From Verrucomicrobiota bacterium (GTDB taxonomy: Bacteria; Verrucomicrobiota; Verrucomicrobiia; Verrucomicrobiales; Verrucomicrobiaceae): DNA of 64,000 nt. The notes below the pieces were generated by a model. The model was not told the DNA's origin, did not search any database, and worked only from the letters and a program-made list of their open reading frames with translations. The first letter of the stretch is position 1, and each line of letters starts with the position of its first letter. Positions 7,934 through 49,639 of this stretch are shown here, piece by piece. Position numbers and translations under genes: made by a program. The DNA is taken from assembly GCA_043758025.1 (NCBI GenBank), contig JAYVOH010000098.1, positions 199 through 64,198 on the forward strand, read 5' to 3'.

Positions 7934-7935
7934 AC
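7912..7935. repeat. Direct repeat copy 1 (24 nt, GCTGCGCCGGAAAAGGCGCTGAAC), overlaps stop codon of giant PEP-CTERM gene
   Basis: Perfect 24/24 match to 10904-10927, read directly from the sequence. Confidence 0.9.
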
Positions 7936-7990
7936 AAATATTTAGCGCCCATCTCGCCGAAGATGGATGCGGCGCTTGCGGAGTATACTT

Positions 7991-13375: not shown

Positions 13376-14899
13376 ATGATGATCGAAGGCGAAGTTTCTG
13401 TTCTGGATTATGGCTCGCAATACAGCCAGCTCATTGTCCGCCGCGTCCGCGAGCTGGGATTTGTCTCGCATCTTTATCCGCCTGCGCGGCTGGGCGAACT
13501 GAACAAACCGGGTGCCATCATCCTCAGCGGCGGCCCGCGCAGCACGAGCGAGAAGGATGCGCCGGACGTGGATTTTGCGAAGCTGAACTCGTTCAGCGTG
13601 CCAGTGCTCGGTGTCTGCTACGGCATGCAATTGCTCAACATCAAACACGGCGGCACGGTGAAGCCCGGCGTCACGCGCGAGTATGGACCAGCCAAGCTTG
13701 TAGTCGCGCAGGACTGCGCGTTGTTCAAAGGCGTATCGCACGAGTCCCAGGTGTGGATGAGCCACAGCGACACCTGCCAGGATCGCGGCGGCGAGACCAA
13801 GGTCATCGCGACCAATGAAGACGGCGTGCCCGTGGCTCTGCAATGGAGCTCGACTTGCTTCGGCATTCAATTCCACCCGGAGGTCACGCACTCGCACGAA
13901 GGCACGGCCATCCTGCGCAACTTCCTCACCAATACCGGCGCGAAACTAGCGAAGTTCGACATCCAAGCCTTCAAGACGCAGATGCTGGAGCAGATCAAAC
14001 ACGATGTCGGCAATCGCGAAGTAATCTGCGGCGTTAGCGGCGGCGTTGATTCGACCGTGCTCGCCGTGCTGTTACAGCGTGCGAGCGTAAAAGTGCGCGC
14101 GATCTACATCGACAACGGCCTGATGCGTCTGAACGAAACGGCCGAAGTGATAGCGCAATTTGTAGAAGTCGGCGTCCCCATTGAAGTCATCGATGCCAGC
14201 AAGCGTTTCCTCGATGCGCTAAAAGGCGTGACCGATCCCGAGCAGAAGCGCAAGATCATCGGCACTATGTTTGTCGATGTGTTCTGGGGCGTGGCCGACA
14301 ATGTGGAGCTGCTCGCACAGGGCACGCTTTATCCCGACGTGATCGAAAGCGCCACCAGCGGCAGCATTGCCAGCGTGATCAAAACGCATCACAACCGCGT
14401 GGATCGCATCATGGAACTCAAGGCGCAGGGCAAGGTGCTGGAACCGCTCGCGGAACTCTTCAAAGACGAAGTGCGCGCGCTCGGTGCGAGCCTCGGCATC
14501 CCCCATCACGCACTGTGGCGGCATCCGTTCCCTGGGCCTGGGCTCGCCGTGCGCGTGCCTGGTGAGATCACCGAGGAGAAACTGACGATCTGCCGCGCTG
14601 CTGATGACATTTGGATCAAAGAACTGCGTCGCAGCGGCCAATACGAACGCGTGTGGCAGGCCTATGCCGCGCTGTTGCCCGTGAAAACCGTGGGCGTGAA
14701 AGGTGATGAACGAAGCTACGAAGCCGCCATCTCCCTGCGCGCCGTGATCAGCGAAGACGCCATGACCGCCGACTGGGTGGAACTCCCCTATGAAGTGCTG
14801 CGTGCCGCATCGAATAAGATCCTGAACTCGGTCAAAGGCATCAACCGCGTGCTCTACGATATTTCCACGAAGCCGCCGGCGAGCATTGAATGGGAGTGA
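13376..14899 (+). CDS. guaA: GMP synthase (glutamine-hydrolysing)
   Basis: N-terminal GATase (..VLGVCYGMQLL..FHPEV..), ATP-PPase loop GVSGGVDS, and canonical C-terminus ..KPPASIEWE*. Confidence 0.95.
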   Translation: MMIEGEVSVLDYGSQYSQLIVRRVRELGFVSHLYPPARLGELNKPGAIILSGGPRSTSEKDAPDVDFAKLNSFSVPVLGVCYGMQLLNIKHGGTVKPGVTREYGPAKLVVAQDCALFKGVSHESQVWMSHSDTCQDRGGETKVIATNEDGVPVALQWSSTCFGIQFHPEVTHSHEGTAILRNFLTNTGAKLAKFDIQAFKTQMLEQIKHDVGNREVICGVSGGVDSTVLAVLLQRASVKVRAIYIDNGLMRLNETAEVIAQFVEVGVPIEVIDASKRFLDALKGVTDPEQKRKIIGTMFVDVFWGVADNVELLAQGTLYPDVIESATSGSIASVIKTHHNRVDRIMELKAQGKVLEPLAELFKDEVRALGASLGIPHHALWRHPFPGPGLAVRVPGEITEEKLTICRAADDIWIKELRRSGQYERVWQAYAALLPVKTVGVKGDERSYEAAISLRAVISEDAMTADWVELPYEVLRAASNKILNSVKGINRVLYDISTKPPASIEWE

Positions 14900-14927: not shown

Positions 14928-15584
14928 CTAAAGCTTGTGCGACGAAGATATACGAATCCAAATTCCAGACCATCTGTCTTCCAGATATCCCATATAGTTG
15001 AACAGGTATCCCGGAGTAAATGATTGAATACCGGCTGAAGCTGTCCCGCTCTTGTCGCTGCCATATCGATAAAGTTGATCAGGTGTTCGATCAACCCCGG
15101 TATATGCCTCATATCCGAAGAACTGATTAAGGTCTTTTGCGGATAATGACCAAGGCGTTGGCCATTGGAATTCGTCACTCGGCAAGAGGCTCCTATATCG
15201 CTTGAGTAGATCAGCTATCTCATGATTCTTCTTGTTTGGCTCTTTATCTATCAACTCAAGACATGCCTTCAGGAACAATTCCGTAGCGAGATGAAGGCAG
15301 TAATAACAAACATTCGCCTGCGGCCAATCGAGGTCGTGACCAATCTCTCCGGCATCTTCGCAGAGAACTTTTGCTGCGTGGAGGAAGGCTCGACTTTGTT
15401 GATATAACCTCTCAGACGGAGAAAGTGCTTTGAAGGCCCATGATTCCACCCTCACTCCGGGCCATCGCATGTTTGCTTGGAACTGATCAACGATGTAAAG
15501 GATGCCATCACTGTCATAGTGGGCCGATACCCACGGCGGCAAATTGGTCGGCAATTCTTTTGGTTCTTGCGCATCATCTGGCAT
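14928..15584 (-). CDS. Hypothetical protein, possible HEPN-like helical domain
   Basis: 218-aa ORF in an AT-richer segment. The helices ..CYYCLHLATELFLKACLELI..KNHEIADLLKRY.. resemble HEPN helices, but no canonical Rx4-6H motif is present. Confidence 0.55.
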   Translation of the reverse strand: MPDDAQEPKELPTNLPPWVSAHYDSDGILYIVDQFQANMRWPGVRVESWAFKALSPSERLYQQSRAFLHAAKVLCEDAGEIGHDLDWPQANVCYYCLHLATELFLKACLELIDKEPNKKNHEIADLLKRYRSLLPSDEFQWPTPWSLSAKDLNQFFGYEAYTGVDRTPDQLYRYGSDKSGTASAGIQSFTPGYLFNYMGYLEDRWSGIWIRISSSHKL

Positions 15585-16368: not shown

Positions 16369-16436
16369 TCAAAGGCATCAACCGCGTGCTCTACGATATT
16401 TCCACCAAGCCTCCCGCGAGCATTGAGTGGGAGTGA
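16369..16436 (+). repeat. Duplicated guaA 3' end, copy 2 (encodes ..[19 protein letters not shown])
   Basis: Aligns with 14832-14899, the native guaA end. The first ~37 nt are identical and the remainder carries a few substitutions. There is no upstream guaA body. Confidence 0.9.
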
Positions 16437-16707: not shown

Positions 16708-17895
16708 ATGCCCCGCTTTTACGACAATCTCTCAGACATGAAGCCGCTACTGCCTGCGGACCGTGACGGCAGTCTTGCGTCACTGGGCTGGCAGGTGGTG
16801 CGACGGGCGGAGCGGCTTGGAGGGGCGCTACATCCGGTCACGGCGCGCGGGCTGGCGCAGGTGGTGCGGGTGATGAACAGCTACTACTCTCACCTCATTG
16901 AGGGACATCACACCGCGCCGGCGGACCTGGATGCTGTGCTGCGCGGCGCGACCACTGGCAGACTGGAGCGGCGGGAGTTACAACAGCTTCACTTGGCGCA
17001 CCTGCACACGCAGTCGGAGATGGAGCAGGGTCTGGCGGCGCAGCCGGATGAGGACATCACCGAGCCAGCTTTCATTCAGAAGCTGCATGCCATTTTCTAT
17101 GACGCGCTGCCGGCCAGTGCGCGGCTGGTGAGGGGGCATGATGGGAAAAGCCACGCCGTGCCACCGGGGCAGTGGCGGGGATTCAACGTGTCCGTAGGGC
17201 AGCATCTCGCGCCGAAGCATGAAAAGCTCCCAACGTTCATGGAGCGTTTTGGCCGGTTTTATCGACCGCTGGTGGCGGACACGGGCGCCAGTCTTGTGGC
17301 CTGCGCGGCGGCGCATCACCGGCTGGCGTGGATTCATCCGTTCGCGGATGGGAACGGTCGGGTGGCGCGGCTTTTCAGCCAAGCGTGGCACTGGCGCGGC
17401 GGCGTGCATGCGCACGGGCTGTGGTCCGTCTCGCGTGGCCTGGCGCGCCGACTGGACGACTATCGCGCGGCATTGTCCGCAGCGGATGGAAAGCGCCGGC
17501 ATGATGCGGACGGGCGCGGCTATCTGTCCGAGACGGCACTGGCGGAGTTCTGCTGGTTTTATCTGGAGACCAGCGTGGACCAGCTTGATTTCATGGCGGA
17601 ACGCCTCGCCGTGGATTCATTGGCACGAAGGATCACGGGTTACGCGGAACTTTCAGAAGCCACGGGTGATCTGCCCAAAGGCAGCCGCCATCTGCTGCCG
17701 GAAGTCTCACGACGTGGTGAAATCCCGCGAGGAGACGCCGCGCGGATCATCGGCAAAAGCGCGCGCACGGCGCAGACCGTGATTCGTGGTCTGTTGGACA
17801 GCGGCCATTTCACCAGCCCCAGCGAGAAAGGTCCGCTGCGTTTGGGTTTTCCCCTCGAGGCGCTGGCGGCGTGGCTTCCGGGGTTATATGCGTGA
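16708..17895 (+). CDS. Fic family protein (AMPylase-type, auto-inhibited class)
   Basis: Fic motif HPFADGNGRVAR and an N-terminal inhibitory-helix motif SHLIEG ([S/T]xxxE[G/N]) at residues 61-66. C-terminal winged-helix-like region. Confidence 0.9.
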   Translation: MPRFYDNLSDMKPLLPADRDGSLASLGWQVVRRAERLGGALHPVTARGLAQVVRVMNSYYSHLIEGHHTAPADLDAVLRGATTGRLERRELQQLHLAHLHTQSEMEQGLAAQPDEDITEPAFIQKLHAIFYDALPASARLVRGHDGKSHAVPPGQWRGFNVSVGQHLAPKHEKLPTFMERFGRFYRPLVADTGASLVACAAAHHRLAWIHPFADGNGRVARLFSQAWHWRGGVHAHGLWSVSRGLARRLDDYRAALSAADGKRRHDADGRGYLSETALAEFCWFYLETSVDQLDFMAERLAVDSLARRITGYAELSEATGDLPKGSRHLLPEVSRRGEIPRGDAARIIGKSARTAQTVIRGLLDSGHFTSPSEKGPLRLGFPLEALAAWLPGLYA

Positions 17896-17916
17896 GGCCT
17901 GCTGCGCGCTGCGTCG

Positions 17917-17974
17917 CATCCGCGTGCTCTACGATATTTCCGCGAAGCCGCCTGCGAGCATTGAGTGGGAGTGA
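17917..17974 (+). repeat. Duplicated guaA 3' end, copy 3 (encodes ..[17 protein letters not shown])
   Basis: Aligns with 14846-14899 and 16383-16436. Confidence 0.9.
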
Positions 17975-32990: not shown

Positions 32991-33911
32991 TCAGTGCGCC
33001 AGATAGCGTTCCGCCTCCAGCGCAGCGGCGCAGCCCTGACCGGCGGCGGTAATGGCCTGGCGATAGACGTGATCCGCTACGTCGCCCGCAGCGAAGAGTC
33101 CCGCGACGTTGGTCTGGGTGCCCTTGGTCTGCACAATGTAGCCGTTCTCATCGAGCGTGATCAGGCCGTTGAGAAACTGCGTGTTAGGCACATGGCCGAT
33201 GGCGACGAAAACGCATTTCAGTTCCAGTTCGTTCTCCGCGCCGGTCACGAGGTTTTTCAGTGTAACCGCGCGCACCTCGCCTTTCTCATCGGCAAGGTAT
33301 TCTGAGACTGTGCTGTTCCAGACGGGCTTAATTTTTGGATTGGCCAACGTGCGGTCGGCCATGATCTTGGAGGCCCGTAATTCTTCGCGACGATGTATAA
33401 GATACACCACGCTGGCGAAGCGGGTGAGAAACATCGCCTCCTCGCAGGCGCTGTCGCCGCCGCCGATGACGCAGACGGGCACGTTGCGATAGAACGCTCC
33501 ATCGCAAGTGGCGCAGCTTGTCAGTCCGTGGCCGATGAGCTTTTGTTCCCCGGGCAGACCAAGGTGGCGGGGCGAGGCGCCGGTGGCGATGATGACGGTC
33601 TTCGCGTGCAAGGTGCGACCGCCTTCCAGGGCGAGTTCAAAATGGCCGTCCGCGCATTCTGTGAGGACCTCGACCTTCGCATAATCAATGCGCGCGCCGA
33701 ACTTTTCCGCTTGGGCCTGCATTTTCATCATTAAATCTGGCCCTTGGATGCCTTCGGGAAAACCTGGAAAATTCTCCACTTCGGTCGTGGTGGTGAGCTG
33801 GCCGCCGGGCTGGGTGCCGGAGAGCAGGAGCGGATTCAAATTAGCGCGTGCGGTGTAAATGGCTGCTGTGTAGCCGGCGCAGCCGGTGCCGATGATGATG
33901 ACGTTTTCCAT
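32991..33911 (-). CDS. trxB: Thioredoxin-disulfide reductase
   Basis: FAD motif [14 protein letters not shown], redox centre CATCDG, NADPH motif GGGDSA. 306 aa. Confidence 0.95.
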
Positions 33912-33976
33912 GTTTGCAGGATAAAATTGAGCGCCAAAGATGCAAGGCGGCCCGCGTGGGTCAATCCCTCATTTGC

Positions 33977-34004
33977 TTGCAATGACCGGCGGCAGACTTA
34001 GAAT
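33977..34004 (+). promoter_or_regulatory. Candidate sigma70-type promoter of second RelE/ParE TA operon (possibly leaderless)
   Basis: TTGCAA (33977-33982), a 16-nt spacer, TAGAAT (33999-34004), then 6 nt before the ATG at 34011. Confidence 0.4.
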
Positions 34005-36430: not shown

Positions 36431-36610
36431 CGCGGCAATCCAGACCGTTTCGCAGACATTGCGGATTTCTGATTGCGCGGCTGTTCTGCGATGCAGGTGG
36501 GCCGCTTGTTCGGGTCGATGCGTAGCGGAAAATATTAAGATGAAATGAATCTAAAACTCACGCTTTGTATTCACGGCAATTATTGCTAAGATGCGCCCTC
36601 TCGATTTCCC

Positions 36611-38782
36611 ATGACTTCCGCTGCCGCGACCGCAACCCATCATGCCACCATCAATGGTTTGGAGAATGTGCCGAGTGTCGGTGTGCTCATCATTCCGAGC
36701 AGGCTGGGGTTCTCTGATCTGATCAATTTGGAAAAAATGCTTCCCGGGCGGGAGCTGGTTTATTTGATCGAGCACGACGCGCAGTTCTCGGCGGAATTAA
36801 AAAAGCATCTGCACAGCGACGGAGTCCATGCCCTTGAAATACCCCCTGGCCCGGCAAAAGCGGATGCGCTGCATCGCGAGATCCAAGGCGCCGCCGCCGC
36901 TGGCAAAGTCATCATCTATGTGCCTTCAGAGTTGGTGGCCCCCGGCGCCCCCCTGTGCACCATCCCAGGCGCGAAGCTCGAATTTCTCATGCAGTTGAAG
37001 TTGCCGGTGCTGCCTCTCCACGTGCTGCACACCCATGATCTCGCCATGGCTATTGAGAGGAAGAGGCCGTCAGACGCGGCGGTCTTCTCTTTCGGCACCG
37101 TGGTGTCCGAGGGTTCGGTGGCAGCGATTCAGGAGTCACTCTTGCTGCTCTCGGAGAAAAGCTTCTCCCGGCTTCCGCTGCTTGATCTGCATCTGGCGCG
37201 CGCACTATTGATGGGATTAAAAAAACACCGTTCTCACGCCTGTGTCATTGACGGGAAAGACGACAGGATTTTCAGCTTCGATAGGATTCTGGCCCTGGCC
37301 ATCGTGCTCAGCAAGCACATCCGGTCCGCCACCAAGAAAAACCGGGTGGGCATCATCCTCCCTCCGTGTGGGGCCTCCACGGTAGCCAACGTCGCGGTGC
37401 TGCTGGCCGGGAAAGTTCCGGTGAATCTCAATTTCACGGCGGGTCGCGCCGCGATTGAAAGCGCTATGAAGCAGGCCGAGACCGATCACTACATCACCTC
37501 CGATTTGTTTGTTCGGAAAGTGCAGACTTTCCCGTGGCCGCCCAACCGCCAGCTCACTTTCATCGAGCGACTCCTGCCGATGAAGAAGGGGGCCATCATC
37601 TTTTGGTCGGCCGTCTCCAAGTTTCTCCCGACCTCCATCCTCGCGATGGTTCTGGGCGTTCCCAAAAAAGGCGGCGACTCCGAGGCCACGCTCCTTTTCA
37701 CCAGCGGCAGCAGCGGCGACCCCAAGGGCGTGGTGATGAGCCATCGCAATCTCATGGCCAACATCTGCCAGTTCAGTTCGCGCCTGAATCTGAAGCGTGG
37801 AGACAGTATCCTCGGCTGCCTGCCGCTCTTTCACTGCTTCGGCAGCACGGTGACGCTCTGGTATCCCATGGTCCAAGGGATCAATGTGGTGACTTATCCC
37901 ACGCCGCTGGAGATCAAAAAACTCGCCGAGCTGGTGCACAAGCACAAGATCACCGTGATGATTTCCACCCCGACCTTCCTGCGCGGTTATCTCAAGGGCG
38001 TGAACCCTGAGATGCTGGCGTCATTGAATCTCATTGTCACCGGCGCGGAGAAACTACCCAGGGCGGTGGCCGATGCCTTCGAATCGCGCTTCGGAAAAAA
38101 AGTTTACGAAGGATATGGCCTCACGGAAACCTCGCCCGTCTCCAATGTCAACCTGCCCGATCCCGTGCCACCCAGTGGAGCCGGTGATAGCTCGGTCATG
38201 ACCACTCATCGCCCGGGCAGCGTCGGCCAGTTGGTGCCGGGCTTGGCGATGAAAATCACCGTGCCGGAATCTGACTCGCCCCTCAGCTTGCATCAAAGCG
38301 GCATGATCTGGTTCAAGGGGGCCAATGTTTTCAAAGGCTATCTAAAAAATCCCAAGAAGACGGAGGAGGTCATTCAGGACGGATGGTTCCGCACTGGTGA
38401 CATCGGACGCATGGATGCAGATGGTTTCCTCTATATTGAAGGCCGTCTCAGCCGTTTCTCGAAGATCGGCGGCGAAATGGTGCCGCACGAAACCGTTGAG
38501 GAGAACCTGGTCAGAGCCCTGAATCTCGAAAGTGAAAGCAACCGCTGCATCGCTGTGGTCGGCATCCCCGACGCGGACAAAGGTGAGGCGCTGGTGATGC
38601 TCACCACCTTGCCCGGCGGTTCCGTGCAGCAGGAGATTCTCGATCTGCGTTACAAGCTGCTCGATCGAGGCATGACGCCGCTCTGGATACCCAAAAAGAT
38701 GATCCGCGTTCAGGAAATTCCCGTGCTGGCCAGCGGCAAGCTTGATATCAAAGCGTGTGAAGTCATCGCGATGACTGCGTGA
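36611..38782 (+). CDS. Aas-like bifunctional-type protein: degenerate acyltransferase-like N-domain + AMP-dependent acyl-(ACP/CoA) synthetase
   Basis: AMP-binding motifs LLFTSGSSGDPKGVVMSHRNL, YGLTETSP, GWFRTGDIG and the terminal ..ASGKLD. The N-terminal ~230 aa resembles PlsC-type acyltransferase, but the HxxxxD position reads PSRLGFSD. Confidence 0.8.
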   Translation: MTSAAATATHHATINGLENVPSVGVLIIPSRLGFSDLINLEKMLPGRELVYLIEHDAQFSAELKKHLHSDGVHALEIPPGPAKADALHREIQGAAAAGKVIIYVPSELVAPGAPLCTIPGAKLEFLMQLKLPVLPLHVLHTHDLAMAIERKRPSDAAVFSFGTVVSEGSVAAIQESLLLLSEKSFSRLPLLDLHLARALLMGLKKHRSHACVIDGKDDRIFSFDRILALAIVLSKHIRSATKKNRVGIILPPCGASTVANVAVLLAGKVPVNLNFTAGRAAIESAMKQAETDHYITSDLFVRKVQTFPWPPNRQLTFIERLLPMKKGAIIFWSAVSKFLPTSILAMVLGVPKKGGDSEATLLFTSGSSGDPKGVVMSHRNLMANICQFSSRLNLKRGDSILGCLPLFHCFGSTVTLWYPMVQGINVVTYPTPLEIKKLAELVHKHKITVMISTPTFLRGYLKGVNPEMLASLNLIVTGAEKLPRAVADAFESRFGKKVYEGYGLTETSPVSNVNLPDPVPPSGAGDSSVMTTHRPGSVGQLVPGLAMKITVPESDSPLSLHQSGMIWFKGANVFKGYLKNPKKTEEVIQDGWFRTGDIGRMDADGFLYIEGRLSRFSKIGGEMVPHETVEENLVRALNLESESNRCIAVVGIPDADKGEALVMLTTLPGGSVQQEILDLRYKLLDRGMTPLWIPKKMIRVQEIPVLASGKLDIKACEVIAMTA
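38735..38782 (+). repeat. Direct repeat copy 1 (3' end of Aas-like gene, ..GKLDIKACEVIAMTA*)
   Basis: Aligns with 43591-43638. The exact 23-nt core ATCAAAGCGTGTGAAGTCATCGC lies at 38747-38769. Confidence 0.85.
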
Positions 38783-39137
38783 CTTGCGGTCCTTATTTTT
38801 TCTGCGGCAGATTCAACTTCATTGATTGCGCCACGGCATATCCGGCGAGCTTGGAGATCGCGCAGAGTGGTCGGGAGGGAGGACTTGCTCGTATGCTGAG
38901 TTCGTGAAGTGGCTGCTGTAACCGCACGCGATTCACCGCGCCCTACCGACTGCAAGCCAAGGGGAAGTCAAGACATACAGAGACGGAGCAGCCTCCCGCA
39001 AGCACAAGACAAGAAATGAAAGAAACTACTGCTACAGACTACACTACGTTGTAACAAGTTTACTCATAAGCTGACGCAGAGTGTTTCAGCGGAGGGTAAG
39101 CGCATATCCGCGAACGGCGGCGTTGTGTTAGAGTTGG

Positions 39138-40130
39138 CTATCTAGCACCGAGTTTCGGCTCAAGGTTTCTATCATTTGGAGATGGGTTTCGAAAGCCGTC
39201 CACGACCGCAAAGTGATCGCCACCCGCTATCATTCTAAATCGAACCTTGGCAAAGGAATTATCAGGTAGTTGCAGCCAGTAGTTCTTTGTCTCGGTATCC
39301 CTCCATTTTCGAATACCAAGTGACTTCGGCATATCAATTACTGTTGAAGTAGTATAACCTTTAACAGGTGCTTCAAAAGCGGTGCTATCTGTCACTTCTT
39401 GGATGCCTCCGCCATTTACGATGATTTCGCATCGCCAATCAAACGGTGCTGCTGAGTCGTCAGTGTGGGCTTCGCTTTCACACTTCACGGTCAAGATCGG
39501 TGATCCCTTCCGACTTAAGCTAATCGGTAAAGCAACTCCGTTCCGAGGAATTTTTGCTTGTCCATTGAGCCGTTCAAGAACCACCGGATTGCCAGGCTTC
39601 CGAAGGTTGAAAATTGCTGGACGACTTGGATCGGATTTATGGACTCCACGGCCGGTATCAGCAGCAAAGTCAAATCCCTGCGAAGTAGGCTTTAACTGGC
39701 CTCCACGATCAATGTCGTCGTAGCCGTCCTTCGACACGCGCACATGAAGGCTTGCACCATTCGCACGGATTGTAAACCTGCCATCAGCAGCGGAAGATGT
39801 GGAGAGTGGAGTGCCAGATTGAAGATTATTGAGAACCGTCGCACTGACGGTTGCGCCTTGCACTGGGTTCTGATTCTGATCTAGCACAATGCCATAAAAC
39901 GTGATCGGCGTTTGAAGCAATGCTAGCATTGGCTTGGCCTCTGAAGCTGGCGGTGATTGATTGCCGACATTTGTCGGCAACAGAGTTGAAGCTTCCGTTG
40001 TGTATGGCTTTGACGCCAAAGTATCGACTCTACTTTGTTTGCTGGACGAATCGGGTCGGAGACACAAAAACAGCAGTGTTACCAGAAGTAAGACCCCACT
40101 TATCCAAACAATCTTCCTTGGTGTGCTCAT
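39138..40130 (-). CDS. Membrane-anchored protein with carboxypeptidase-regulatory-like beta-sandwich domain
   Basis: N-terminal TM anchor IVWISGVLLLVTLLFLCL, and ..FYGIVLDQNQNPVQGATVSATV...ADGRFTI.. (CarboxypepD_reg pattern). ATGA overlap with the upstream gene. Visibly low GC. Confidence 0.65.
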   Translation of the reverse strand: MSTPRKIVWISGVLLLVTLLFLCLRPDSSSKQSRVDTLASKPYTTEASTLLPTNVGNQSPPASEAKPMLALLQTPITFYGIVLDQNQNPVQGATVSATVLNNLQSGTPLSTSSAADGRFTIRANGASLHVRVSKDGYDDIDRGGQLKPTSQGFDFAADTGRGVHKSDPSRPAIFNLRKPGNPVVLERLNGQAKIPRNGVALPISLSRKGSPILTVKCESEAHTDDSAAPFDWRCEIIVNGGGIQEVTDSTAFEAPVKGYTTSTVIDMPKSLGIRKWRDTETKNYWLQLPDNSFAKVRFRMIAGGDHFAVVDGFRNPSPNDRNLEPKLGAR

Positions 40131-42364
40131 GGCATTGGGTTTGGGTTGATTCTGAAAGTGTAGAGAAGCTCACGCCATACTCCAAATGTCCTCTGAAGCG
40201 ACCAAATCCACTCCGCGCTGTGTTCACTGCCGAACAGTGACCGGTAGTTGTTCTCGAAAACGAATCTGTCCATGTCGATTTGCCAAGCCCCTGGCATTTC
40301 TAAATTGGTCGGTGTTCGACCGGCGGGTAGGGATTGCGTCCGAGTCACGAACGCCATGGCCTCTTCTTCCATTGTAACAGCATGATTTGAGAATAGGTCG
40401 AATCGAATTAGCTTACTCTTTGTTCCATGTCCGTCGCCAAGATCCCAGCCGCTATTTGAATACTCGTAGGTGCGATCGGTGACACTGTTTGGTTTGTTTA
40501 TTGTTTGATTGAGGCTCCAAGCCGTCGTTGCAAAGTCATCCTCAAGATAGAAATTGGTAACTGTCGCTGTGATGCCACTGAACTTCCCAGAAAGACCGAA
40601 CTTCGTCCGGATTGATGCGTCATCGTCCGTGTCTGGTGTGGCCAAGTTCGGAATGTCAATTCGGGTGGGGTCATATGATTGTGCGGCCATCGCAGCATTG
40701 AAAAGCGCATATCGTGAGACTCCAGTCATTCCCTGGAGAAACGCAGAACCGACAACTACATTTCCCATGCTATGCGCCATGATGTTCTTGGTGTAGCCGC
40801 TGGGTAGGGATGCCACATACGACTTCAGCGCCGCACCTGAGAGCCATGCACGATACTCGCTCTTGTTGTAAGTCAGGTAGCCATTGAGCGCACTTGTTGC
40901 AGGATTGAAAGTTGGCCAACTAAAGAAAGCATATCGTCCTTTATAGCCCAGATGCCACAATCGTTTGAATGTAGTGTTTGCCCAAGTCTGTGCTTCAGCA
41001 TACGTCATGCGCCAGCTGTGAACGTGGATGATGTATTGCTTGGTTTCGTCTGGATCTGTCTGGAACGCATTTCCATTTGGGTCAGTGGTTGACTGGAAGA
41101 TCAATGGCTCAGCTGTCACCCATGGGTCAGGAACGTTGTCAGGTTCAGCCATGGGAGCTGCAACCTTGCCGCGCTCGAACATCTCTTGGACGTCCATGAG
41201 TTTGATCCAAACGCCAGCCCCCTCGGCTTCTGCTGTAGAGCCAAACTTGATGACCATGGCAAGCTGTGCTGTTCCTTTTTCACAGCCTTCAAAAATAAAG
41301 TTCAATTTCGATGTTCCTGCCGCCACACCATGCCAGTAGGAGATTGGTAGAAATGTGGTCTGGCTTCCCTTCACATCAAGCACAGATTTCTGGTGGTCAG
41401 GGTCAACCTGCAAGTTAGCCTCATATTTGTAAAACAAGTATCTCTCATCTCCTTCGTCACCTTGCGCTTTGTAAACGCGAATTCGTGGGCCGATGCCATT
41501 TACCCATTTAAACCCAACCTGCAGTTCACCCGCTTTGGCTTTCTGCACGATGGCCGACGGCAATCTCACATGCAGGCGCGTGAAGTCCTCAAGGTCACGC
41601 ACTCCATCAATGTGACCTAGTGTCGGAGAAGAACGCCAGTCCGCAAATTCAGGCGGCGAAAGCTCGTCCCTCTTCATTGCTGTCTCAACATCTTCTCCGA
41701 GAGTATAAGGATCATCATCGTTATTGATCCAGAACCTAAACGGCTTTTGTTGGCTGGTCGTGTCTTTCTCATCGAAAGTGATTTCACCATCCCTGTTGGC
41801 GTCCACTGCTAAGTCAATAGGCAGTAAACACAAGATCACAGAAATGCCATCCTGATCATTGACGCCGGGTTTATACCACTTTTGACAGTAGTGAAGCTGG
41901 ATGTCGTAAGTTTTGCCAGATATGAATACACTCGGCCACGGTCTGGCTCCATTTAAAATATCGTGTCCTTTGTCATATTCTTCCAACCATGGCTTGGTTG
42001 TGTTATCAATATTCATTTCACAGCCATCATCGGACACTAGCGTCATCAGGCAGATGAACGACTGGCCATGTTTAGCTTCCGGCAATCTGAGCGCTCCGTC
42101 GTAGGTCTTGCCTATGGCTGTGCCTTGCGTGGCATCCATGTTTTTAATCTTGAGTTTACCACTTTTTGCTTTTTCTATCTCCTTAGTATAATCTGCATAA
42201 CTTTTCGTGTGCACGACGACGCTGGGAAAGTCTCCTGTGACGTTGGCATTAGTTGGATCTTGGGCTTGAAGCAGTGCTCCCGCACCATGAAGAATGCAGA
42301 CGGCGATCAACCCTGCACGAATTCCGGGACCATTTGAGAGTAATCTGAAATGCTTTATGGTCAT
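40127..42364 (-). CDS. Secreted multidomain protein with C-terminal DUF900-type alpha/beta hydrolase (lipase/esterase-like)
   Basis: Signal peptide. The C-terminal part ..IIHVHSWRM..GYKGRYAFFSWPT..NIMAHSMGNVVV.. matches the DUF900 pattern (HG.. / FSWPS / nucleophile elbow HSMG). The N-terminal PA14-like pattern (..SDDGCEMNID..GKTYDIQLHY..) is tentative. Acidic Ca-binding-like motifs DANRDGEI and FWINNDDD. Confidence 0.7.
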   Translation of the reverse strand: MTIKHFRLLSNGPGIRAGLIAVCILHGAGALLQAQDPTNANVTGDFPSVVVHTKSYADYTKEIEKAKSGKLKIKNMDATQGTAIGKTYDGALRLPEAKHGQSFICLMTLVSDDGCEMNIDNTTKPWLEEYDKGHDILNGARPWPSVFISGKTYDIQLHYCQKWYKPGVNDQDGISVILCLLPIDLAVDANRDGEITFDEKDTTSQQKPFRFWINNDDDPYTLGEDVETAMKRDELSPPEFADWRSSPTLGHIDGVRDLEDFTRLHVRLPSAIVQKAKAGELQVGFKWVNGIGPRIRVYKAQGDEGDERYLFYKYEANLQVDPDHQKSVLDVKGSQTTFLPISYWHGVAAGTSKLNFIFEGCEKGTAQLAMVIKFGSTAEAEGAGVWIKLMDVQEMFERGKVAAPMAEPDNVPDPWVTAEPLIFQSTTDPNGNAFQTDPDETKQYIIHVHSWRMTYAEAQTWANTTFKRLWHLGYKGRYAFFSWPTFNPATSALNGYLTYNKSEYRAWLSGAALKSYVASLPSGYTKNIMAHSMGNVVVGSAFLQGMTGVSRYALFNAAMAAQSYDPTRIDIPNLATPDTDDDASIRTKFGLSGKFSGITATVTNFYLEDDFATTAWSLNQTINKPNSVTDRTYEYSNSGWDLGDGHGTKSKLIRFDLFSNHAVTMEEEAMAFVTRTQSLPAGRTPTNLEMPGAWQIDMDRFVFENNYRSLFGSEHSAEWIWSLQRTFGVWRELLYTFRINPNPMP

Positions 42365-43413
42365 GGGCGGGGCTTGGGCTTGACTTCGGTGTTGGTTGCT
42401 TTCTTTTTTAAAACTTTCTCAGCAGCATCTTTTTTTGCTTTGGCAGCCGCGATCCATTTGTCAAAATATTTTCGACATGGCGCAAGGTTGCCATCCGTTC
42501 GCAGCATTGCTGCCTCTGTCCGGGCTTGGTCGTATCGGCCCGTTGAGAGATAAATCACTGCGAGGTTGTAATGAACATCGTCCAAGTCATTTCCTTCTCC
42601 CGGTCTGATGAAGCGCGGCGCAAGACTTTTTAGTAACTGAATGGCGCATTCTGTGTTCGCCTGACCTCCAAGTGCTTGAGCCTCCTGTGCCGCATCCTTG
42701 GTAAGGCTCAATACCTTATCACTAGAGAAATGTTCCGACGACGGTTCAAGCGCAGCCAGGAGTTCACTCATCCAGCCACGCCGAACCAAATGCGTCAGCC
42801 AGCTGCTGGAACGGGCGGCAAACTGTTTATCCTTGGGGAAATTGCCTGTGTTGATCAAATCACATATGTAAAAAATGATCCTTCGCGCCATGATGCGGCG
42901 GGTTTCGGGCGTGAAGGCAACGGGGTCCTGGGAATTCATCATATAACCCAATGAGAACTCCCATTTCGCACGTCGCTCATTGCCGGTCAGTTCCGCATCA
43001 CACACAGCCAGGATCACTCGCAGGCCGGCGCACATGCCGGGCCAGTCTTTCGCTTCGTCAAGGTAAGCGTATGCCGTGGTTTCCGGCACATAACCCGTGG
43101 TGGTAATAGAAAATGGTGGCACAATGGTGTCACCTTTGGCCTTGTCCAGATAGGTCATGACACGAGTGCGGATGATTGCTGCATCAAAAGCGTAATTGGA
43201 AGCGAGTGCTTTCAAATAATCGATGTCCACATTGGTCTTGCGCCATTCTCGATCAAACAAGCGCTGAAACTCTGTAGGTTCCGTAGTTGTTCCACTCTGG
43301 CTTTCGCCAGACTGCGCATTGATGAGGCCGCATGGGAAAATCACTGCCATGACAAGCCATAGCCATGCTCCGCAACTCAATGGGAGACTCCTGAAGTTTA
43401 TGAGACGAGTCAT
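42361..43413 (-). CDS. Secreted helical (TPR-like C-terminus) protein
   Basis: The signal peptide begins at MTRLINFRSLPLSCGAWLWLVMAVIFPCGLINAQ (ATG 43413; the ORF opens at 43473). The C-terminus ..YNLAVIYLSTGRYDQARTEA.. is TPR-like. ATGA overlap with the downstream gene. Confidence 0.6.
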   Translation of the reverse strand: MTRLINFRSLPLSCGAWLWLVMAVIFPCGLINAQSGESQSGTTTEPTEFQRLFDREWRKTNVDIDYLKALASNYAFDAAIIRTRVMTYLDKAKGDTIVPPFSITTTGYVPETTAYAYLDEAKDWPGMCAGLRVILAVCDAELTGNERRAKWEFSLGYMMNSQDPVAFTPETRRIMARRIIFYICDLINTGNFPKDKQFAARSSSWLTHLVRRGWMSELLAALEPSSEHFSSDKVLSLTKDAAQEAQALGGQANTECAIQLLKSLAPRFIRPGEGNDLDDVHYNLAVIYLSTGRYDQARTEAAMLRTDGNLAPCRKYFDKWIAAAKAKKDAAEKVLKKKATNTEVKPKPRP

Positions 43414-43590
43414 TTCAGTGTTCTCCGTTGTTCGTAGAATGGAAATGGTTAACCCCAGTTTGGTTGCTGGCAATCAACAAATGGTAGATTTTCGTTACCG
43501 ACCATGCCGTGCTGATAGAATGGTGAAGGCAATCGATTGCGCCCGGCTTGATGCGAATACAAGCCGATGAAAAGAATGGTGTCCGGCTGC

Positions 43591-43638
43591 GGCAAGCTGG
43601 ACATCAAAGCGTGTGAAGTCATCGCCAGGAACGCATGA
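43591..43638 (+). repeat. Direct repeat copy 2 (orphan copy of Aas-like gene 3' end, ..GKLDIKACEVIARNA*)
   Basis: The 23-nt exact core lies at 43603-43625, with flanking partial identity. No gene body upstream. Confidence 0.85.
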
Positions 43639-43647
43639 CCGAAGCTC

Positions 43648-45273
43648 CTAGTTTTTCCGTGACAAAAACAACTTCATCGACTGCGCCACATAAAAACCGG
43701 CGAGTTTGGCAAAGCCTGGCTCATTGATGATTTGATCCAGTTGATCGCGTGCTTCCTCCGGAGTTCCTTTGCGTTGCGCAAGTTCCGCGCGGTAGAGTGC
43801 GCAGCGAAGCTGGTCTTCCGGCACTGTGTTCAAGGAGCGGGCGTGCTGATAGAAATCATCCGCCTGACCGAAATTTCCCTCAAGCGTGGACAGCATCCCG
43901 GCCAGTTCAAGTAACAGCGGTTTTTTCATTTCCTCCGCAATGCGGACGATTTCCCGGTGAAATTTTTTTGTGTCATGCGGTAGAAAACGATGCGCCTGCT
44001 CCTGGTAAAGCGCGTAGTCTGCACCCGGCGACCCGCTCCCGGGCAGCGCGCGCTCCTTGCGAAATGGCTGGTAGAGAGGATCGCCGACCACCACGTTCAT
44101 CCATGAGAGCACCGGAGTGCCGCTCCATGCGGCCTCGCCCAGCGTGAAGCCTTCAAGCAGCCGCGCATTCATCAGGTCAAAGTGCGTGGTCAGCGTGAGG
44201 TAGGGTTCCCAGACATTTCCCAAGACCGCTGCTGCGCCGTGGTCGAGCATCGGCCCGCACCAGTTGTCTGTTTTCGTGCGCAGGGTGGCGGCGCTGAATG
44301 AATGAAGATGACACGCGATGGCTCCCGGCTTGAACCTGAATCCCGGTGATCCCAGGGCGCCGCTGCATTGGTCGTTATACCAGCCGAAGTAGAGAATCGT
44401 GTCCGGCAGCGGCCAGTTGCTGCGCAGGATTTCCTTGTTCCGGTCGGCATAGACAGGAATGCCTGCATCGCGAAAAAGTTTCACGCTGTTTCCCAGCCAG
44501 CGCTCGCCCTCGAGAAATGCTCCGTCTTTGAGGGCAAAGTCCACCACCGCGCGCCCCCACAAGCCTTCCTTCTCGGCCTTCAACGTTTCATTGATCATGC
44601 GCTTGACGATGTCATCGGTCGCCGCATCGAGGCGTCCGATGAGAAGCTGGCCGCGTGCCTCATAGTGATCGGCGAATCGGCGGGTGGATTGGTAGTATCG
44701 GTTTTCAATGCCGCCCTTGATAGGCCGCTGCATAAGTCCCAGCGCTGCCAGCTCGCTGTCCACGCTGGCCTCGTCGGTATCCATCACATTGGGCTTAGCC
44801 TCATGCGAGGCCCGGCTTACACGCAGCGGAATGCCGCGAATCAGCACCAGCACCCGCACGTTTTGGCTAACCACTTGCGGCCCCTGGCTGATCGGGCTGC
44901 CGTTTGGATCCAGCACATCGCGGGTCTCCACGACCCACCATTTCTTTTCGGTGAATTTTTTCAGCAAAGGTTCACGGATCGATTTTTCAAACTCATCCCG
45001 CGTGATGGTTTCTTCCTTGGAGCACTCGATGCCCACCACGCGATCATCTGGGATTAGTCTCAGGCCGGCGTAATATTTCGCCAGTGCTTCCGAGCCTTCA
45101 CATGCCGGATTGAAGACGACCACCGCTTCCTTGACCGGCTCCCATTCTCGCGCCGGAGTAGGGGCGGGCATCGCAGGTGGCGCTGCGGAAACCCGATGAA
45201 CACCCGCCAGTAGTGAAAGTAACAGCAGCTTTCTCAACAGGGCCGTGAAGCCCTGTCGTCGCGTGATTCTCAT
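43648..45273 (-). CDS. Secreted hypothetical protein with C-terminal TPR-like repeats (possibly TIGR03790-type family)
   Basis: Signal peptide after MRITRRQGFTALLRKLLLLSLLAGVHRVSA (the ORF opens at 45312). ..VVVFNPACEGSEALAKYYAGLRLIPDDRVV.. is recalled as typical of a Verrucomicrobia/Planctomycetes conserved family. That family call is from memory only. Confidence 0.65.
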   Translation of the reverse strand: MRITRRQGFTALLRKLLLLSLLAGVHRVSAAPPAMPAPTPAREWEPVKEAVVVFNPACEGSEALAKYYAGLRLIPDDRVVGIECSKEETITRDEFEKSIREPLLKKFTEKKWWVVETRDVLDPNGSPISQGPQVVSQNVRVLVLIRGIPLRVSRASHEAKPNVMDTDEASVDSELAALGLMQRPIKGGIENRYYQSTRRFADHYEARGQLLIGRLDAATDDIVKRMINETLKAEKEGLWGRAVVDFALKDGAFLEGERWLGNSVKLFRDAGIPVYADRNKEILRSNWPLPDTILYFGWYNDQCSGALGSPGFRFKPGAIACHLHSFSAATLRTKTDNWCGPMLDHGAAAVLGNVWEPYLTLTTHFDLMNARLLEGFTLGEAAWSGTPVLSWMNVVVGDPLYQPFRKERALPGSGSPGADYALYQEQAHRFLPHDTKKFHREIVRIAEEMKKPLLLELAGMLSTLEGNFGQADDFYQHARSLNTVPEDQLRCALYRAELAQRKGTPEEARDQLDQIINEPGFAKLAGFYVAQSMKLFLSRKN

Positions 45274-45301
45274 TTGAGTATGAACATTCATCACCATGCA
45301 A

Positions 45302-46093
45302 TCATGCATCATTCCAAGTCAGCCGGAGACCATCATAAGCGATCTTCACGCCATCCGGCAACTTCTGTTCCTCTCGTGCATGCATAATTTCGCACTGGAT
45401 GTGTGTGAACCAGGTCTGTCGTGCGCCAACATTCCCGGCAAACGCCAGCGCCTCCGGGAAGTTCATATGCGTGGGGTGCGGTGAGTGCCGCAGGGCGTCC
45501 ACAATGAGTGTGTCCACCCCGCTCAAGGCATCAATGGTTCCTGCAACCGCCTCCTTCATGTCGCTGATATACGCGCAAATTTTTCTGCCATGCCGCATAA
45601 ACAAAAACCCGATAGCTTCCACATTGCCATGTTTCACCGGGACTGGGATCACTTCCGTCTGTCCGATCTGGAACGGCCCGCTGATCGGCCGGGCCTCCGC
45701 TTTCAGATAGCCCCGCCAGCGGTTCACCGGATTGAAGCTGAAATAAAAGATGCGCTGCAGCGCCTCCAGCGTTTCCGGCAGTCCATACACCGGCATCACC
45801 GCCTCCTCGGGAATCGTGAACCGGCGCACATCATCAAAGCCGACGACATGATCAATGTGCGAATGCGTGAGCAGCACCGCATCCACGCGGCGAATGTTTT
45901 CCCGCAGGCATTGCGCGCGAAAGTCCGGCCCCGTATCCACCACGAAAGTGCATTCCGGCGTCTGGATGTAAATCGAGGATCGCAGGCGCTTGTCCCTTGG
46001 ATCAACGCTCCGGCAGGTCTCGCAGTCGCAGCCGATCATCGGCACGCCGACCGAGGTTCCGGTTCCGAGAAAGGTGAGTTCAAATGTGGACAT
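45302..46093 (-). CDS. MBL-fold metallo-hydrolase (PhnP-like)
   Basis: ..FLGTGTSVGVP..C.C..C.. then the HxHxDH motif THSHIDHVVG. 263 aa. Confidence 0.85.
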   Translation of the reverse strand: MSTFELTFLGTGTSVGVPMIGCDCETCRSVDPRDKRLRSSIYIQTPECTFVVDTGPDFRAQCLRENIRRVDAVLLTHSHIDHVVGFDDVRRFTIPEEAVMPVYGLPETLEALQRIFYFSFNPVNRWRGYLKAEARPISGPFQIGQTEVIPVPVKHGNVEAIGFLFMRHGRKICAYISDMKEAVAGTIDALSGVDTLIVDALRHSPHPTHMNFPEALAFAGNVGARQTWFTHIQCEIMHAREEQKLPDGVKIAYDGLRLTWNDA

Positions 46094-46144: not shown

Positions 46145-47803
46145 ATGCTTTCCCTGCTGAAAATACAAAACCTCGCCCTCGTCGAAGATCTCGCATGGGA
46201 ACTAGACGCGGGACTTATCGGCGTCACCGGCGAAACGGGCGCGGGTAAGTCCATCATCGTCGGGGCCTTGAAGCTCATCCTCGGCGAGCGCGCGGATCGC
46301 GGGCTGATCCGCACCGGCGCGGACACCTGCACGGTGGAGGCGGTGTTTGATTTGAAAAAAACCGCGATCGTGGACGAAATCCTCACACAAAGCGGCCTCG
46401 ACAAGCTTGATGGAGAGCCGCTCATCATCCGCCGCGTCATCGGCGCGACCACGAACAAGCAGTTCGTCAACGGCTCGCCAGTCACCAGCGCGATGTTGAA
46501 GCAACTGGGCGAACATCTGGTCGATCTGCATGGCCCGCATGATCATCAATCGCTTAATTCAAAAGAACGCCAGCTTGAAATGCTCGACGCCTACGCGGCG
46601 ATCGATGATTTGGCGGACAAATATCAAGTCGCATTTGCCACCTGGCGTCGCCTTCAGTCCGAGCACGACGAACTCGCGAACGCCGGTCGCGCCACGGAGC
46701 AGGAAATGGACATGCTCCGCTTCCAGATCAAAGACATCGCCGATGCGGATTTGCAGGACGGCGAGGAAGAGGAAATCGAATCACGGCATCGCATCGCCGC
46801 CAACAGCACGCGCCTCATCGAGCTCTGCGGCGGCATCGCCGAACGGCTCGGTGAAGGTGAGAATGGTCTCATGACCGCGCTGCGCGAAGTTGCGAAGATG
46901 GTGCATGAGCTGGAGAAATACGATCCGAAGCTCGCTGAAATATTTGGCGGCTTTGAGTCCGCGCATATCGAGTTGCGAGAGATGGAAAGCTCCGTGCGCG
47001 ACTACGCCGAGGGTATCGAAATCCAGCCGGACGAACTCGCGCGTCTGGAGCAGCGCATTCACACCATCCAGATGCTGAAGCGAAAATACGGCGCGACCGT
47101 CAAAGACATTCTCGCATTCAAGGAACAGGCCGAGGGTAAACTCGCGAAGATGGAAAATCGCGGTGACGTCCTCGAAAAATTCCGCCATCAAGCCGATGCC
47201 GCGCGCACCGAAGTCGGCAAAGTCGGCACCCAGCTTTCCATGAAGCGTAAATCCGCCGCGCCCAAGCTCGCCAAAGATATCAGCGCTCATCTCGCCGATC
47301 TCGGCTTCCAGCGCGCCGTGTTTGAAGTGCCTCTCATCAAGCGTGACGAACCAGCACGTGACGGGCTCGAAGAATGTGATTTTCAGTTTGCGCCGAATCC
47401 CGGCGAACCGCTCAAGCCCCTGCGTCTGACTGCATCCAGCGGTGAAATGAGCCGCGTGCTGCTCGCCGTGAAAAGCGCGCTCGCCAAACAGGATGCCATC
47501 CCGCTCATGGTCTTCGATGAAATCGACGCCAACGTCGGCGGTGCCATCTCCGAGGCCGTCGGTCGCAATATGGCCGCGCTCGCTGAACGCCACCAAGTCA
47601 TCGCCATCACCCACATGCCGCAGCTCGCGAGCCTGGCGAAGACCCAGTTCGTCGTGACCAAGGAATTCGACGACAAACGCACGCGCTCTACGATCACCGA
47701 AGTCAAAGGCAAAGACCGCGTCGCCGAACTCGCGCGGATGCTCGGTGGAAAAGCCGAGAGCGCCAGGGCACACGCGGAGAATTTGCTTGCCGCAAGACGA
47801 TAA
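46145..47803 (+). CDS. recN: DNA repair protein RecN
   Basis: MLSLLKIQNLALVEDL.., Walker A GETGAGKS, long coiled coil, signature ..SGGEMSRV.. and Walker B MVFDEIDA. The start at ATG 46145 was chosen over the artefactual long ORF from 45485. Confidence 0.9.
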   Translation: MLSLLKIQNLALVEDLAWELDAGLIGVTGETGAGKSIIVGALKLILGERADRGLIRTGADTCTVEAVFDLKKTAIVDEILTQSGLDKLDGEPLIIRRVIGATTNKQFVNGSPVTSAMLKQLGEHLVDLHGPHDHQSLNSKERQLEMLDAYAAIDDLADKYQVAFATWRRLQSEHDELANAGRATEQEMDMLRFQIKDIADADLQDGEEEEIESRHRIAANSTRLIELCGGIAERLGEGENGLMTALREVAKMVHELEKYDPKLAEIFGGFESAHIELREMESSVRDYAEGIEIQPDELARLEQRIHTIQMLKRKYGATVKDILAFKEQAEGKLAKMENRGDVLEKFRHQADAARTEVGKVGTQLSMKRKSAAPKLAKDISAHLADLGFQRAVFEVPLIKRDEPARDGLEECDFQFAPNPGEPLKPLRLTASSGEMSRVLLAVKSALAKQDAIPLMVFDEIDANVGGAISEAVGRNMAALAERHQVIAITHMPQLASLAKTQFVVTKEFDDKRTRSTITEVKGKDRVAELARMLGGKAESARAHAENLLAARR

Positions 47804-48957: not shown

Positions 48958-49639
48958 TCCCAACGGGACATCAGCCTCCAGCCCAAGGTTGCCGCTCGGC
49001 GGCTACCTTGGGTAACGGGTTTCCCCATGATGGATCAACCCTGAAGGGGTTGCAGCAGTGCTGCCCTGAACGATCAATCCCACACATAACGCTCATCGAA
49101 ATCCATTTCATGTTTGCGGAACATCGCTCGCAGTTCGTCCTGAAAGCTCAGCTTGCGATGATGTTCCTCCTGCCGAGCGACGTAATCCCGCACGCGGCTC
49201 AAACTGGACTGGCTTACGGAGAAGACGGCATAGCCGCCCTGCCATTGAAAATCACGCCAGTTCGTTCCGTGCTCCTGCAGCCAGAGATTGGACGATCGCT
49301 TAATTTCCTTCACCCAGTCGGCGATGGAAATAGTCCGGCCGAATCGTGCGAGGATGTGGACATGATCCTCCACTCCGCCGATGAGGATCGGGGCGCATTC
49401 GAGCCGTTTGGAGATGCCGCCGAGGTATTCATGCAGCGAGGCGCGCACGGCCTCATCGTGCAGCCAAGGGCGACGCTCCTTGGTGGAAAATACGAGGTGC
49501 AGATAAACCGTGGCGAGTGATTGCGGCATGATCTTTAAGAGGCTGCAACCCCGTTAGGGTTGGGCGATTGGATAATCTTATACCCAAGGTAGCAGCAAGC
49601 TGCAACCTTGGGCTGGAGGCCGAAATCCCGTTGGGATTT
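48958..49639. mobile_element. IS200-like Y1 transposase (RAYT-type) unit flanked by ~100-bp inverted hairpin arrays
   Basis: The left arm (48958-49056) is the reverse complement of the right arm (49542-49639) with few mismatches. Examples are CCTCCAGCCCAAGGTTGC / GCAACCTTGGGCTGGAGG and CAACCCTGAAGGGGTTGCAGC / GCTGCAACCCCGTTAGGGTTG. Each arm contains three short hairpins. Confidence 0.8.
49074..49529 (-). CDS. IS200/IS605-family Y1 (HUH) transposase, REP-associated tyrosine transposase-like
   Basis: 151 aa; ..YLHLVFSTKERRP.., HUH motif VEDHVHIL, and ..QWQGGYAVFSVS.. with the catalytic Tyr region. Confidence 0.85.
   Translation of the reverse strand: MPQSLATVYLHLVFSTKERRPWLHDEAVRASLHEYLGGISKRLECAPILIGGVEDHVHILARFGRTISIADWVKEIKRSSNLWLQEHGTNWRDFQWQGGYAVFSVSQSSLSRVRDYVARQEEHHRKLSFQDELRAMFRKHEMDFDERYVWD

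Follow-up and report, generated by a model that had tools for sequence, protein, structure and literature searches.

In the 64,000-nt stretch of DNA from an uncultured Verrucomicrobiota bacterium analysed here (assembly GCA_043758025.1, contig JAYVOH010000098.1; the window), two core genes, an acyl-ACP-synthetase-like ligase gene (aas) and a gene of the TIGR03790 family (p554), are separated by a 4.7-kb low-GC islet of three genes, on either side of which the end of aas is found. The islet is an ordinary strain-variable islet between two core genes, with interesting cargo, and the sequence around it is best read, with moderate confidence, as the scar of a segmental duplication that has become a locus of cassettes exchanged by recombination. 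A preliminary description of this DNA had envisaged a strain-variable, foreign islet without a recombinase, and had implied that it came in by simple insertion, 48 nt of the ligase gene being duplicated in the process as a target-site or att repeat. The first part of that account holds; the second does not fit, as two genes and the spacer between them fall within the repeat.

The left copy of the repeat (DR-L, 38733-38861) consists of the last 16 aas codons and the stop, a 10-nt spacer and, in antisense, the end of a dead p554 copy, while the right copy (DR-R, 43589-43716) runs from an orphan aas 3' fragment through a 9-nt spacer to the 3' end of the p554 gene proper. Aligned over ~125 nt the copies are 74-77% identical, depending on where the ends are set, and in both of them the aas tail, the spacer and the p554 tail follow each other in the same order and orientation. 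The 48-nt aas ends that the preliminary description had paired were both located in the window: GKLDIKACEVIAMTA with its stop is the aas tail at 38735-38782, and GKLDIKACEVIARNA, also closed by a stop, is the second version at 43591-43638, the orphan fragment. In DR-L the dead p554 tail occupies 38793-38861 on the minus strand (~22 codons and a TAA stop) and ends in ISKLAGYAVAQSMKLNLPQKK. The 23-nt perfect core reported earlier, ATCAAAGCGTGTGAAGTCATCGC, is common to both copies (left, 38747-38769, plus strand; right, 43603-43625) and occurs exactly twice in the window, where no third site exists at up to 3 mismatches and shuffles expect none. The weaker similarity noticed upstream of the core extends 14 nt; on the other side the duplication does not stop with the 3' end of the ligase gene, as had been thought, but runs ~90 nt past its stop codon into p554. 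Because the repeat takes in aas tail, spacer and p554 tail, each copy is an image of a directly convergent (empty) aas/p554 junction. Chance similarity is ruled out by a local alignment score of 102, where 500 shuffles reach at most 30, and by an expectation of 0 core matches. Moreover, the bracketed structure recurs in independent assemblies from at least five samples and is therefore not an assembly artefact.

A tblastn search revealed two p554 remnants besides the gene itself, namely the last 21 codons at 38861-38799 and codons 296-316 and 320-347 at 43607-43490. The second of these is a decayed internal fragment (43490-43607, minus strand, codons ~296-347) that lies in two frames with a ~38-nt deletion. 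It was recovered at E = 2e-4 and has a nucleotide score of 37, compared with 20.9 +/- 2.5 for shuffles, of which 1 in 500 scored as high; its best match is the p554 gene of the window (81% and 74%), and it aligns to homologous coordinates in four independent p554 orthologs (those of the window and of contigs L082, L083 and L084). Both remnants keep the strand and order of p554, with codons 533-554 to the left of the cargo and codons 296-347 to its right, and the cargo (38862-43489) stands in place of codons ~348-532 of the dead copy; no further p554 remnants were found in 38857-39137. The internal fragment, which reaches codon ~296, abuts the orphan aas fragment, which begins at codon ~705, and a microhomology, GGCNGCGGC, is common to aas (38728-38737), p554 (44404-44413) and the joint (43584-43593), where the shared motif appears as GGCNGCGGC/GCGGCAAGCTG. 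A segmental duplication of ~0.83 kb, reaching from aas codon ~705 to p554 codon ~296, would leave one novel joint, and this is the joint to be expected. An internal fragment of the neighbour fused to a fragment of the ligase is the anatomy of a segmental duplication joint, and not that of a recombinase footprint.

Tandem segmental duplications arising by illegitimate (microhomology) recombination occur in bacterial chromosomes and are usually transient. The locus studied here resembles their joints in that gene order is kept, a single novel joint carries a short motif and the flanking genes are intact; it differs from them in being old, to judge from the identity of the copies, in being mostly replaced by cargo, in its uneven divergence and in being fixed in at least two diverged haplotypes. 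The direct repeats in conserved order and orientation, together with the one novel joint at a microhomology, are what a duplication scar would leave. In the history proposed, aas and p554 would originally have been directly convergent, with their stop codons ~10 nt apart. An illegitimate event at GGCNGCGGC would then have joined p554 codon ~296 to aas codon ~705, yielding an intact aas, a spacer, the dead 3' part of p554, an orphan aas tail, a second spacer and an intact p554. Such a duplication would cost nothing, because both genes stay whole, and would result in a stretch of junk DNA. In a second step the low-GC operon would have replaced the middle of the dead p554 copy, and later the homologous recombination of the host would have moved and swapped the cargo without any islet-encoded recombinase, the flanking genes, the repeat and a conserved N-terminal module of the second operon gene serving as homology arms. 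Both copies in the window carry the lineage-specific motif CEVIA, where 70 or more orthologs have CEK[IL]A, which places the duplication within the lineage.

In a population that recombines, the locus acts as a haplotype block, as a comparison of two strains shows. The strain of the window (W) and strain R, represented by contig L212 (25,980 nt; 99.9% identical to contigs L001 and L081 of a metagenome-assembled genome, MAG), are conspecific mosaics in which tracts of 98-100% identity are broken by tracts of 76-90%, a pattern that implies frequent homologous exchange or import of diverged alleles. Diverged stretches include recN (46173-47793, ~86%), 33247-33996 (76-89%) and parts of aas (36594-37460). 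Strain R shares DR-R, the joint between the p554 fragment and aas, and a 100% identical N-terminal segment (~41846-42175) of p745, the second operon gene; its copy of the first gene, p370, is frameshifted and 77-86% identical to that of W at the nucleotide level. Homology between the two strains is lacking from ~41814 leftwards as far as 38826, with the module swap point at window positions ~41814-41846: the left half holds a hydrolase module, the third gene p330 and 276 nt of non-coding DNA in W, and in R a DUF6973 C-terminus (of a 467-aa protein), a 285-aa open reading frame (ORF) and a 91-aa ORF. The last of these was considered as a RayT/IS200-like remnant, an identification that neither Pfam nor blastp supports. 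Homology between W and R resumes at 38825, where DR-L of strain R is truncated, so that the dead p554 tail has lost a further 36 nt in R compared with W. The left core of R has 3 synonymous differences from that of the window, and it differs from the right core of R at 3 positions. At the other end of the islet, mismatches between the strains are dense up to 43601 (the last dense ones at 43599 and 43601) and then number 18 up to 46141, that is, over 2.5 kb; one edge of the divergent haplotype block thus falls at the right-hand core. In several samples, short-read assemblies break off in the N-terminal module of p745 or in p370 (the end of L219 at 41829, the start of L220 at 41969 and the starts of L134 and L135), which would be expected where several alleles or paralogs with that module in common are present together.

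Among 185,579 species genomes, a degenerate form of the core was found only in the two copies of strain R and at the aas 3' end of a sister MAG (L222), which ends in CEVIAKTA and a stop and has a core identical to that of the window. The preliminary description had allowed that the core might be a common dispersed repeat, or that relatives might have the orphan copy without any inserted genes. The core proved to be confined to this locus and one sister aas end, and the nearest strain has the orphan copy together with inserted genes. The empty site that was to be sought in relatives, on the other hand, was found in no relative and no member of the aas cluster. None of 80 aas loci from species genomes shows an empty site, or p554 or the operon within 10 kb, and no empty site occurs in 52 + 61 p554 loci, the 52 from species genomes including only one conspecific MAG. 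A metagenome scan for p554 loci gave nothing closer than 44%; the 90% protein cluster of aas and exact-protein look-ups returned only islet-bearing contigs, and the other assemblies with exact W proteins, from several samples, all have the W arrangement. Among the aas loci of the species genomes, aas/p554 is a synteny breakpoint. In sister MAGs a module of 357/362-aa and 613/616-aa genes is accompanied by small toxin-antitoxin-like ORFs (L082, 3477-7172; L222, 878-3929; 84% nucleotide identity) and adjoins the p554 3' end in L082 and the aas 3' end in L222; judging from these two incomplete contigs, sister species probably hold a different, repeat-free islet in the same interval.

The divergence between the two copies is not the uniform divergence of copies left to themselves after a duplication. 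Through the last nucleotide of the core they differ at 2 of 37 positions, beyond it at 31 of 92 (5% vs 34%, Fisher p = 6e-4), the jump falling at the right edge of the core, and a perfect run of at least 23 nt would have a probability of 0.017 if differences were randomly placed. In the aas part the differences before the core end are all synonymous and 5 of 7 lie at third codon positions, as though both copies had evolved as working gene ends, in a codon-position analysis too small to separate an in-situ from a two-lineage model. These figures would suit an arrival of Campbell type, in which a unit made up of a junction image, the cargo and the internal p554 fragment, in the form of a circle or of a tandem intermediate, would have come from a diverged relative and entered an empty junction by one RecA-type crossover, leaving hybrid repeats that switch at the core. 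The boundary between the W and R haplotypes at the DR-R core agrees with this, tracts that are 10-25% diverged have been imported elsewhere in the two genomes, and in length the core comes close to the lower end of the 25-90 bp of identity reported as necessary for homologous recombination to begin (PMC9650840). This route would nevertheless still require the same illegitimate joint and cargo insertion in the donor, with excision and transfer in addition, and so more steps; no donor, circle or empty recipient turned up among the aas and p554 loci, in the aas cluster or in the core search; CEVIA in both copies would make the donor a very close lineage; and fast-evolving C-terminal tails and the spacer could account for part of the uneven divergence. 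On balance we regard it as unlikely. Less likely again would be that the islet is a recombinase-free, homology-dependent cassette with a portable ~125-bp junction image, looped out by host RecA through recombination between its two images and re-inserted via the conserved 23-37-nt stretch into any strain whose aas/p554 junction is empty, whose payload is an undescribed Sec-dependent polymorphic effector/immunity family of Verrucomicrobiota maintained in balanced haplotypes, the lipase-like DUF900 and the DUF6973 versions being its ancient alleles.

Integrase-borne islands insert at the 3' ends of genes or tRNAs and leave attL/attR direct repeats. In the window, too, an imperfect repeat with a perfect core brackets low-GC DNA, the end of the target gene is reconstituted and an orphan tail lies on the far side; on such a reading the repeats would be attL and attR at the ligase 3' end, the element having supplied a replacement gene end and displaced the original tail to a position beside the host flank, with its integrase lost or acting in trans. 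The haplotype edge at the core suits this reading, and so do the repeats of the guaA 3' end in the same window, which bracket two recombinase-less islets and look like the integrase pattern. Neither the islet nor its strain R version, however, encodes a tyrosine or serine recombinase, an excisionase or a relaxase, the homology enters the neighbouring gene, an att mechanism leaves the fusion of the internal p554 fragment to the orphan tail unexplained, and no empty site was found at the loci searched. The left and right cores of strain R differ at 3 positions, moreover, and the same operon family occurs at other loci without such repeats. On these grounds an att site made by an integrase is quite improbable, and it is the least likely of the ways in which the repeats could have arisen. 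That the repeat is fortuitous, dispersed or the product of a chimeric assembly has only the short perfect core in its favour, and the alignment score, the single-locus distribution of the core across species genomes and the recurrence of the structure in independent assemblies and in a diverged strain leave it a negligible probability.

Several observations weigh against the duplication scar and recombination-exchanged cassette locus that we prefer. Neither a cargo-free duplication nor an empty site was found among the loci searched, and both the duplication and the entry of the operon are reconstructed steps; at 38862 and 43489 no footprints of operon entry are visible. The p554 remnants are short, and the internal one stands at about p = 0.002-0.004 per test. 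Uniform in-situ decay fails on the difference between the two parts of the repeat and on the 23-nt run, so that an additional conversion or import ending at the core has to be assumed; a recombination-tract end of this kind is observed at the core, as the edge of the W-R mismatches. As regards a possible effector/immunity role of the cargo, no secretion gene lies in the flanks, and the best match of the DUF6973 protein in a search of PDB sequences, an effector of the type VI secretion system (T6SS), reaches only E = 0.48.

The GC content between the copies is 0.496 (38862-43489) compared with 0.575 for the whole window, and GC at third codon positions is 0.44-0.54 in the three islet genes as against 0.67-0.73 in the flanking genes. 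The earlier statement that the intervening DNA is AT-richer is borne out by both measures, the latter being lower in all three genes, and in composition this DNA is foreign. The three genes overlap and lie on the minus strand (39138-40130, 40127-42364 and 42361-43413/43473). The first, p370 (350 aa, counted from the ATG at 43413; its ORF reaches 43473), is a secreted protein with a signal peptide and weak TPR matches. The second, p745, begins with a conserved module (41814-42364) comprising a signal peptide and a ~150-aa beta-rich domain, followed by a variable module (40127-41813; residues ~185-745) with Ig domains like those of the PAD4 N-terminal part and a DUF900 lipase/esterase-like alpha/beta hydrolase. 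The third, p330 (39138-40130), combines a CarboxypepD_reg-like domain (PF13620, 3e-9) with a transmembrane segment at its N-terminus. Beyond it lies the 276-nt non-coding tail of the cargo (38862-39137), of which 38922-38994 is 74% like positions 3669-3738 of contig L209, downstream of a paralogous hydrolase locus of strain R.

By fold and catalytic motifs, p745 resembles a secreted multidomain lipase/esterase-like hydrolase. Its AlphaFold model has a mean pLDDT of 78, and the C-terminal alpha/beta hydrolase in the model is similar to monoglyceride lipases, esterases and PETase. S532, the serine of a GxSxG motif (AHSMG), and D610 are invariant across the alignment of p745 homologs and H715 is nearly so; the string DANRDG...PFRFW.N.DDD...RDLEDF is likewise invariant. 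In fold comparisons with the PDB, the middle of the protein (residues ~186-400) comes closest to human peptidylarginine deiminase 4, in its Ig-like N-terminal domains (E ~4e-7), an unexpected resemblance for a bacterial secreted hydrolase. No match was obtained with PDB sequences, nor any Pfam match for residues 1-184; a PA14-like N-terminal domain, considered at one stage, has no Pfam support, the fold matches covering only the middle and C-terminal parts and the N-terminal part being modelled at low confidence.

The preliminary description of a three-gene operon without a recombinase agrees with the domain searches (Pfam and NCBIfam), in which no recombinase, transposase, excisionase or relaxase was detected in any ORF of 38783-43590 or in the strain R version. 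Nor does the islet have the marks of a transposon or insertion sequence: it shows no transposase, no terminal inverted repeats at its ends and no short target-site duplication, the ~125-nt diverged repeat being far longer than such duplications. Between 36 and 46 kb there is no Rfam match at E <= 0.1 and no tRNA-like feature, and promoter and terminator scans gave nothing above shuffles. The nearest transposase, a Y1_Tnp protein 5.5 kb away, has unrelated ends. It is a 151-aa IS200-like Y1 transposase (49074-49529, minus strand; Y1_Tnp, 1e-23) whose gene is flanked by inverted hairpin-rich repeats of ~57-99 nt (48958-49056 and 49542-49636); its involvement was considered and rejected, the hairpin repeats being absent from the islet.

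Outside this locus the operon belongs to a small family. Only eight relatives of p370 were found, and on five contigs (L214, L215, L216, L217 and L218) the gene next after a p370-like one matches p745 over its first ~185 aa at 52-70%. Across seven proteins this N-terminus is conserved at 52-88% identity, and behind it stand at least three unrelated types of C-terminus (DUF900, DUF6973 and the type of L214/L215). The third gene tracks the C-terminal type: p330 goes with DUF900, a 285-aa ORF with DUF6973 and a 259-aa ORF with the L214/L215 type, and no similarity was found between these third-gene types. The co-varying pattern of N-terminus, C-terminus and third gene is seen in L212, L214, L215, L216 and L218, and the operon is low in GC in every genome carrying it. 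The pair formed by the C-terminal module of p745 and p330 recurs in L205-L211 behind quite different N-termini, where p330 always follows a DUF900-type hydrolase module; the homolog search with the DUF6973 C-terminus gave one relative only. In the MAG of strain R, a second, frameshifted hydrolase module (L209, 1-2477; 83% identical at the nucleotide level to window 41614-40490) with a p330 of ~48% amino acid identity has as neighbours a 266-aa secreted protein, a sigma-70-like gene, a Ser/Thr kinase and pntB, and may be a decaying stand-alone cassette.

This organization recalls the polymorphic toxin systems, in which a conserved N-terminal part is combined with C-terminal toxin domains, lipase-like alpha/beta hydrolases among them, that are exchanged via cassettes and have adjacent immunity genes (Zhang et al. 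2012, PMC3482391). The likeness lies in a ~185-aa N-terminus with unrelated C-termini, a co-varying downstream gene, the stand-alone pair of L209 and the atypical composition; unlike those systems, the proteins described here have only a Sec-type signal peptide, and a multidomain variable part of up to 560 aa is large for a toxin tip. No known trafficking module (T5/T6/T7, Rhs, filamentous, PVC) and no known toxin or immunity family was detected. In its architecture the family resembles polymorphic effectors and their partners, perhaps toxin and immunity proteins. By its domains p745 can also be likened to the Haloferax protein cinquedea, an alpha/beta-hydrolase phospholipase that is secreted and bactericidal and has DUF900 in most of its homologs (bioRxiv 10.64898/2026.06.10.730825). 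Here the lead consists in the DUF900-type alpha/beta hydrolase and the signal peptide, whereas p745 has extra N-terminal domains and is part of a three-gene operon, cinquedea being described as a single-gene unit.

The core genes on either side of the islet both remain intact. The aas-like gene (36611-38782, plus strand; 723 aa, ending in KACEVIAMTA and a stop) has a Pfam AMP-binding match at 7e-65 and corresponds only to positions 431-1143 of NF006386, with 585 bits against a cutoff of 1221; its product is accordingly of the AMP-binding acyl-ACP-synthetase type only, and not a full bifunctional Aas. The p554 gene (43648-45312, minus strand) is an intact member of the TIGR03790 family (322.8 bits against a cutoff of 67, residues 62-404) and is syntenic with an MBL-fold gene and recN in many Verrucomicrobiota.

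Elsewhere in the window, the 68 nt that close guaA (20 protein letters) are present three times, at 14832-14899, 16369-16436 and 17907-17974, with 94% and 81% identity and near-equal spacings of 1537 and 1538 nt. The first of the islets so delimited is low in GC and has a 218-aa ORF with a weak HEPN match (14928-15584, minus strand), and the second encodes a 395-aa Fic/DOC protein (16708-17895); neither has a recombinase, and the same two GC-rich hairpins come after copy 2 and again after copy 3. At the very GC-rich beginning of the window (1-8000; GC 0.68-0.70), a long ORF region consists of many imperfect repeats, each ~285 nt long, whose translation into GTLTLSGANTFTG-like units has the look of a giant, repetitive surface protein.

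Taken together, the locus suggests that a harmless duplication of convergent gene ends can make a neutral landing pad, which may become a long-lived hotspot where secreted-enzyme cassettes are swapped without a dedicated recombinase. It also recommends caution in genome scans, where a duplicated gene tail around low-GC DNA is by itself no evidence of an att site. Finally, the cargo family is a candidate system of antagonism between bacteria among freshwater Verrucomicrobiota; in this phylum such systems are poorly known.

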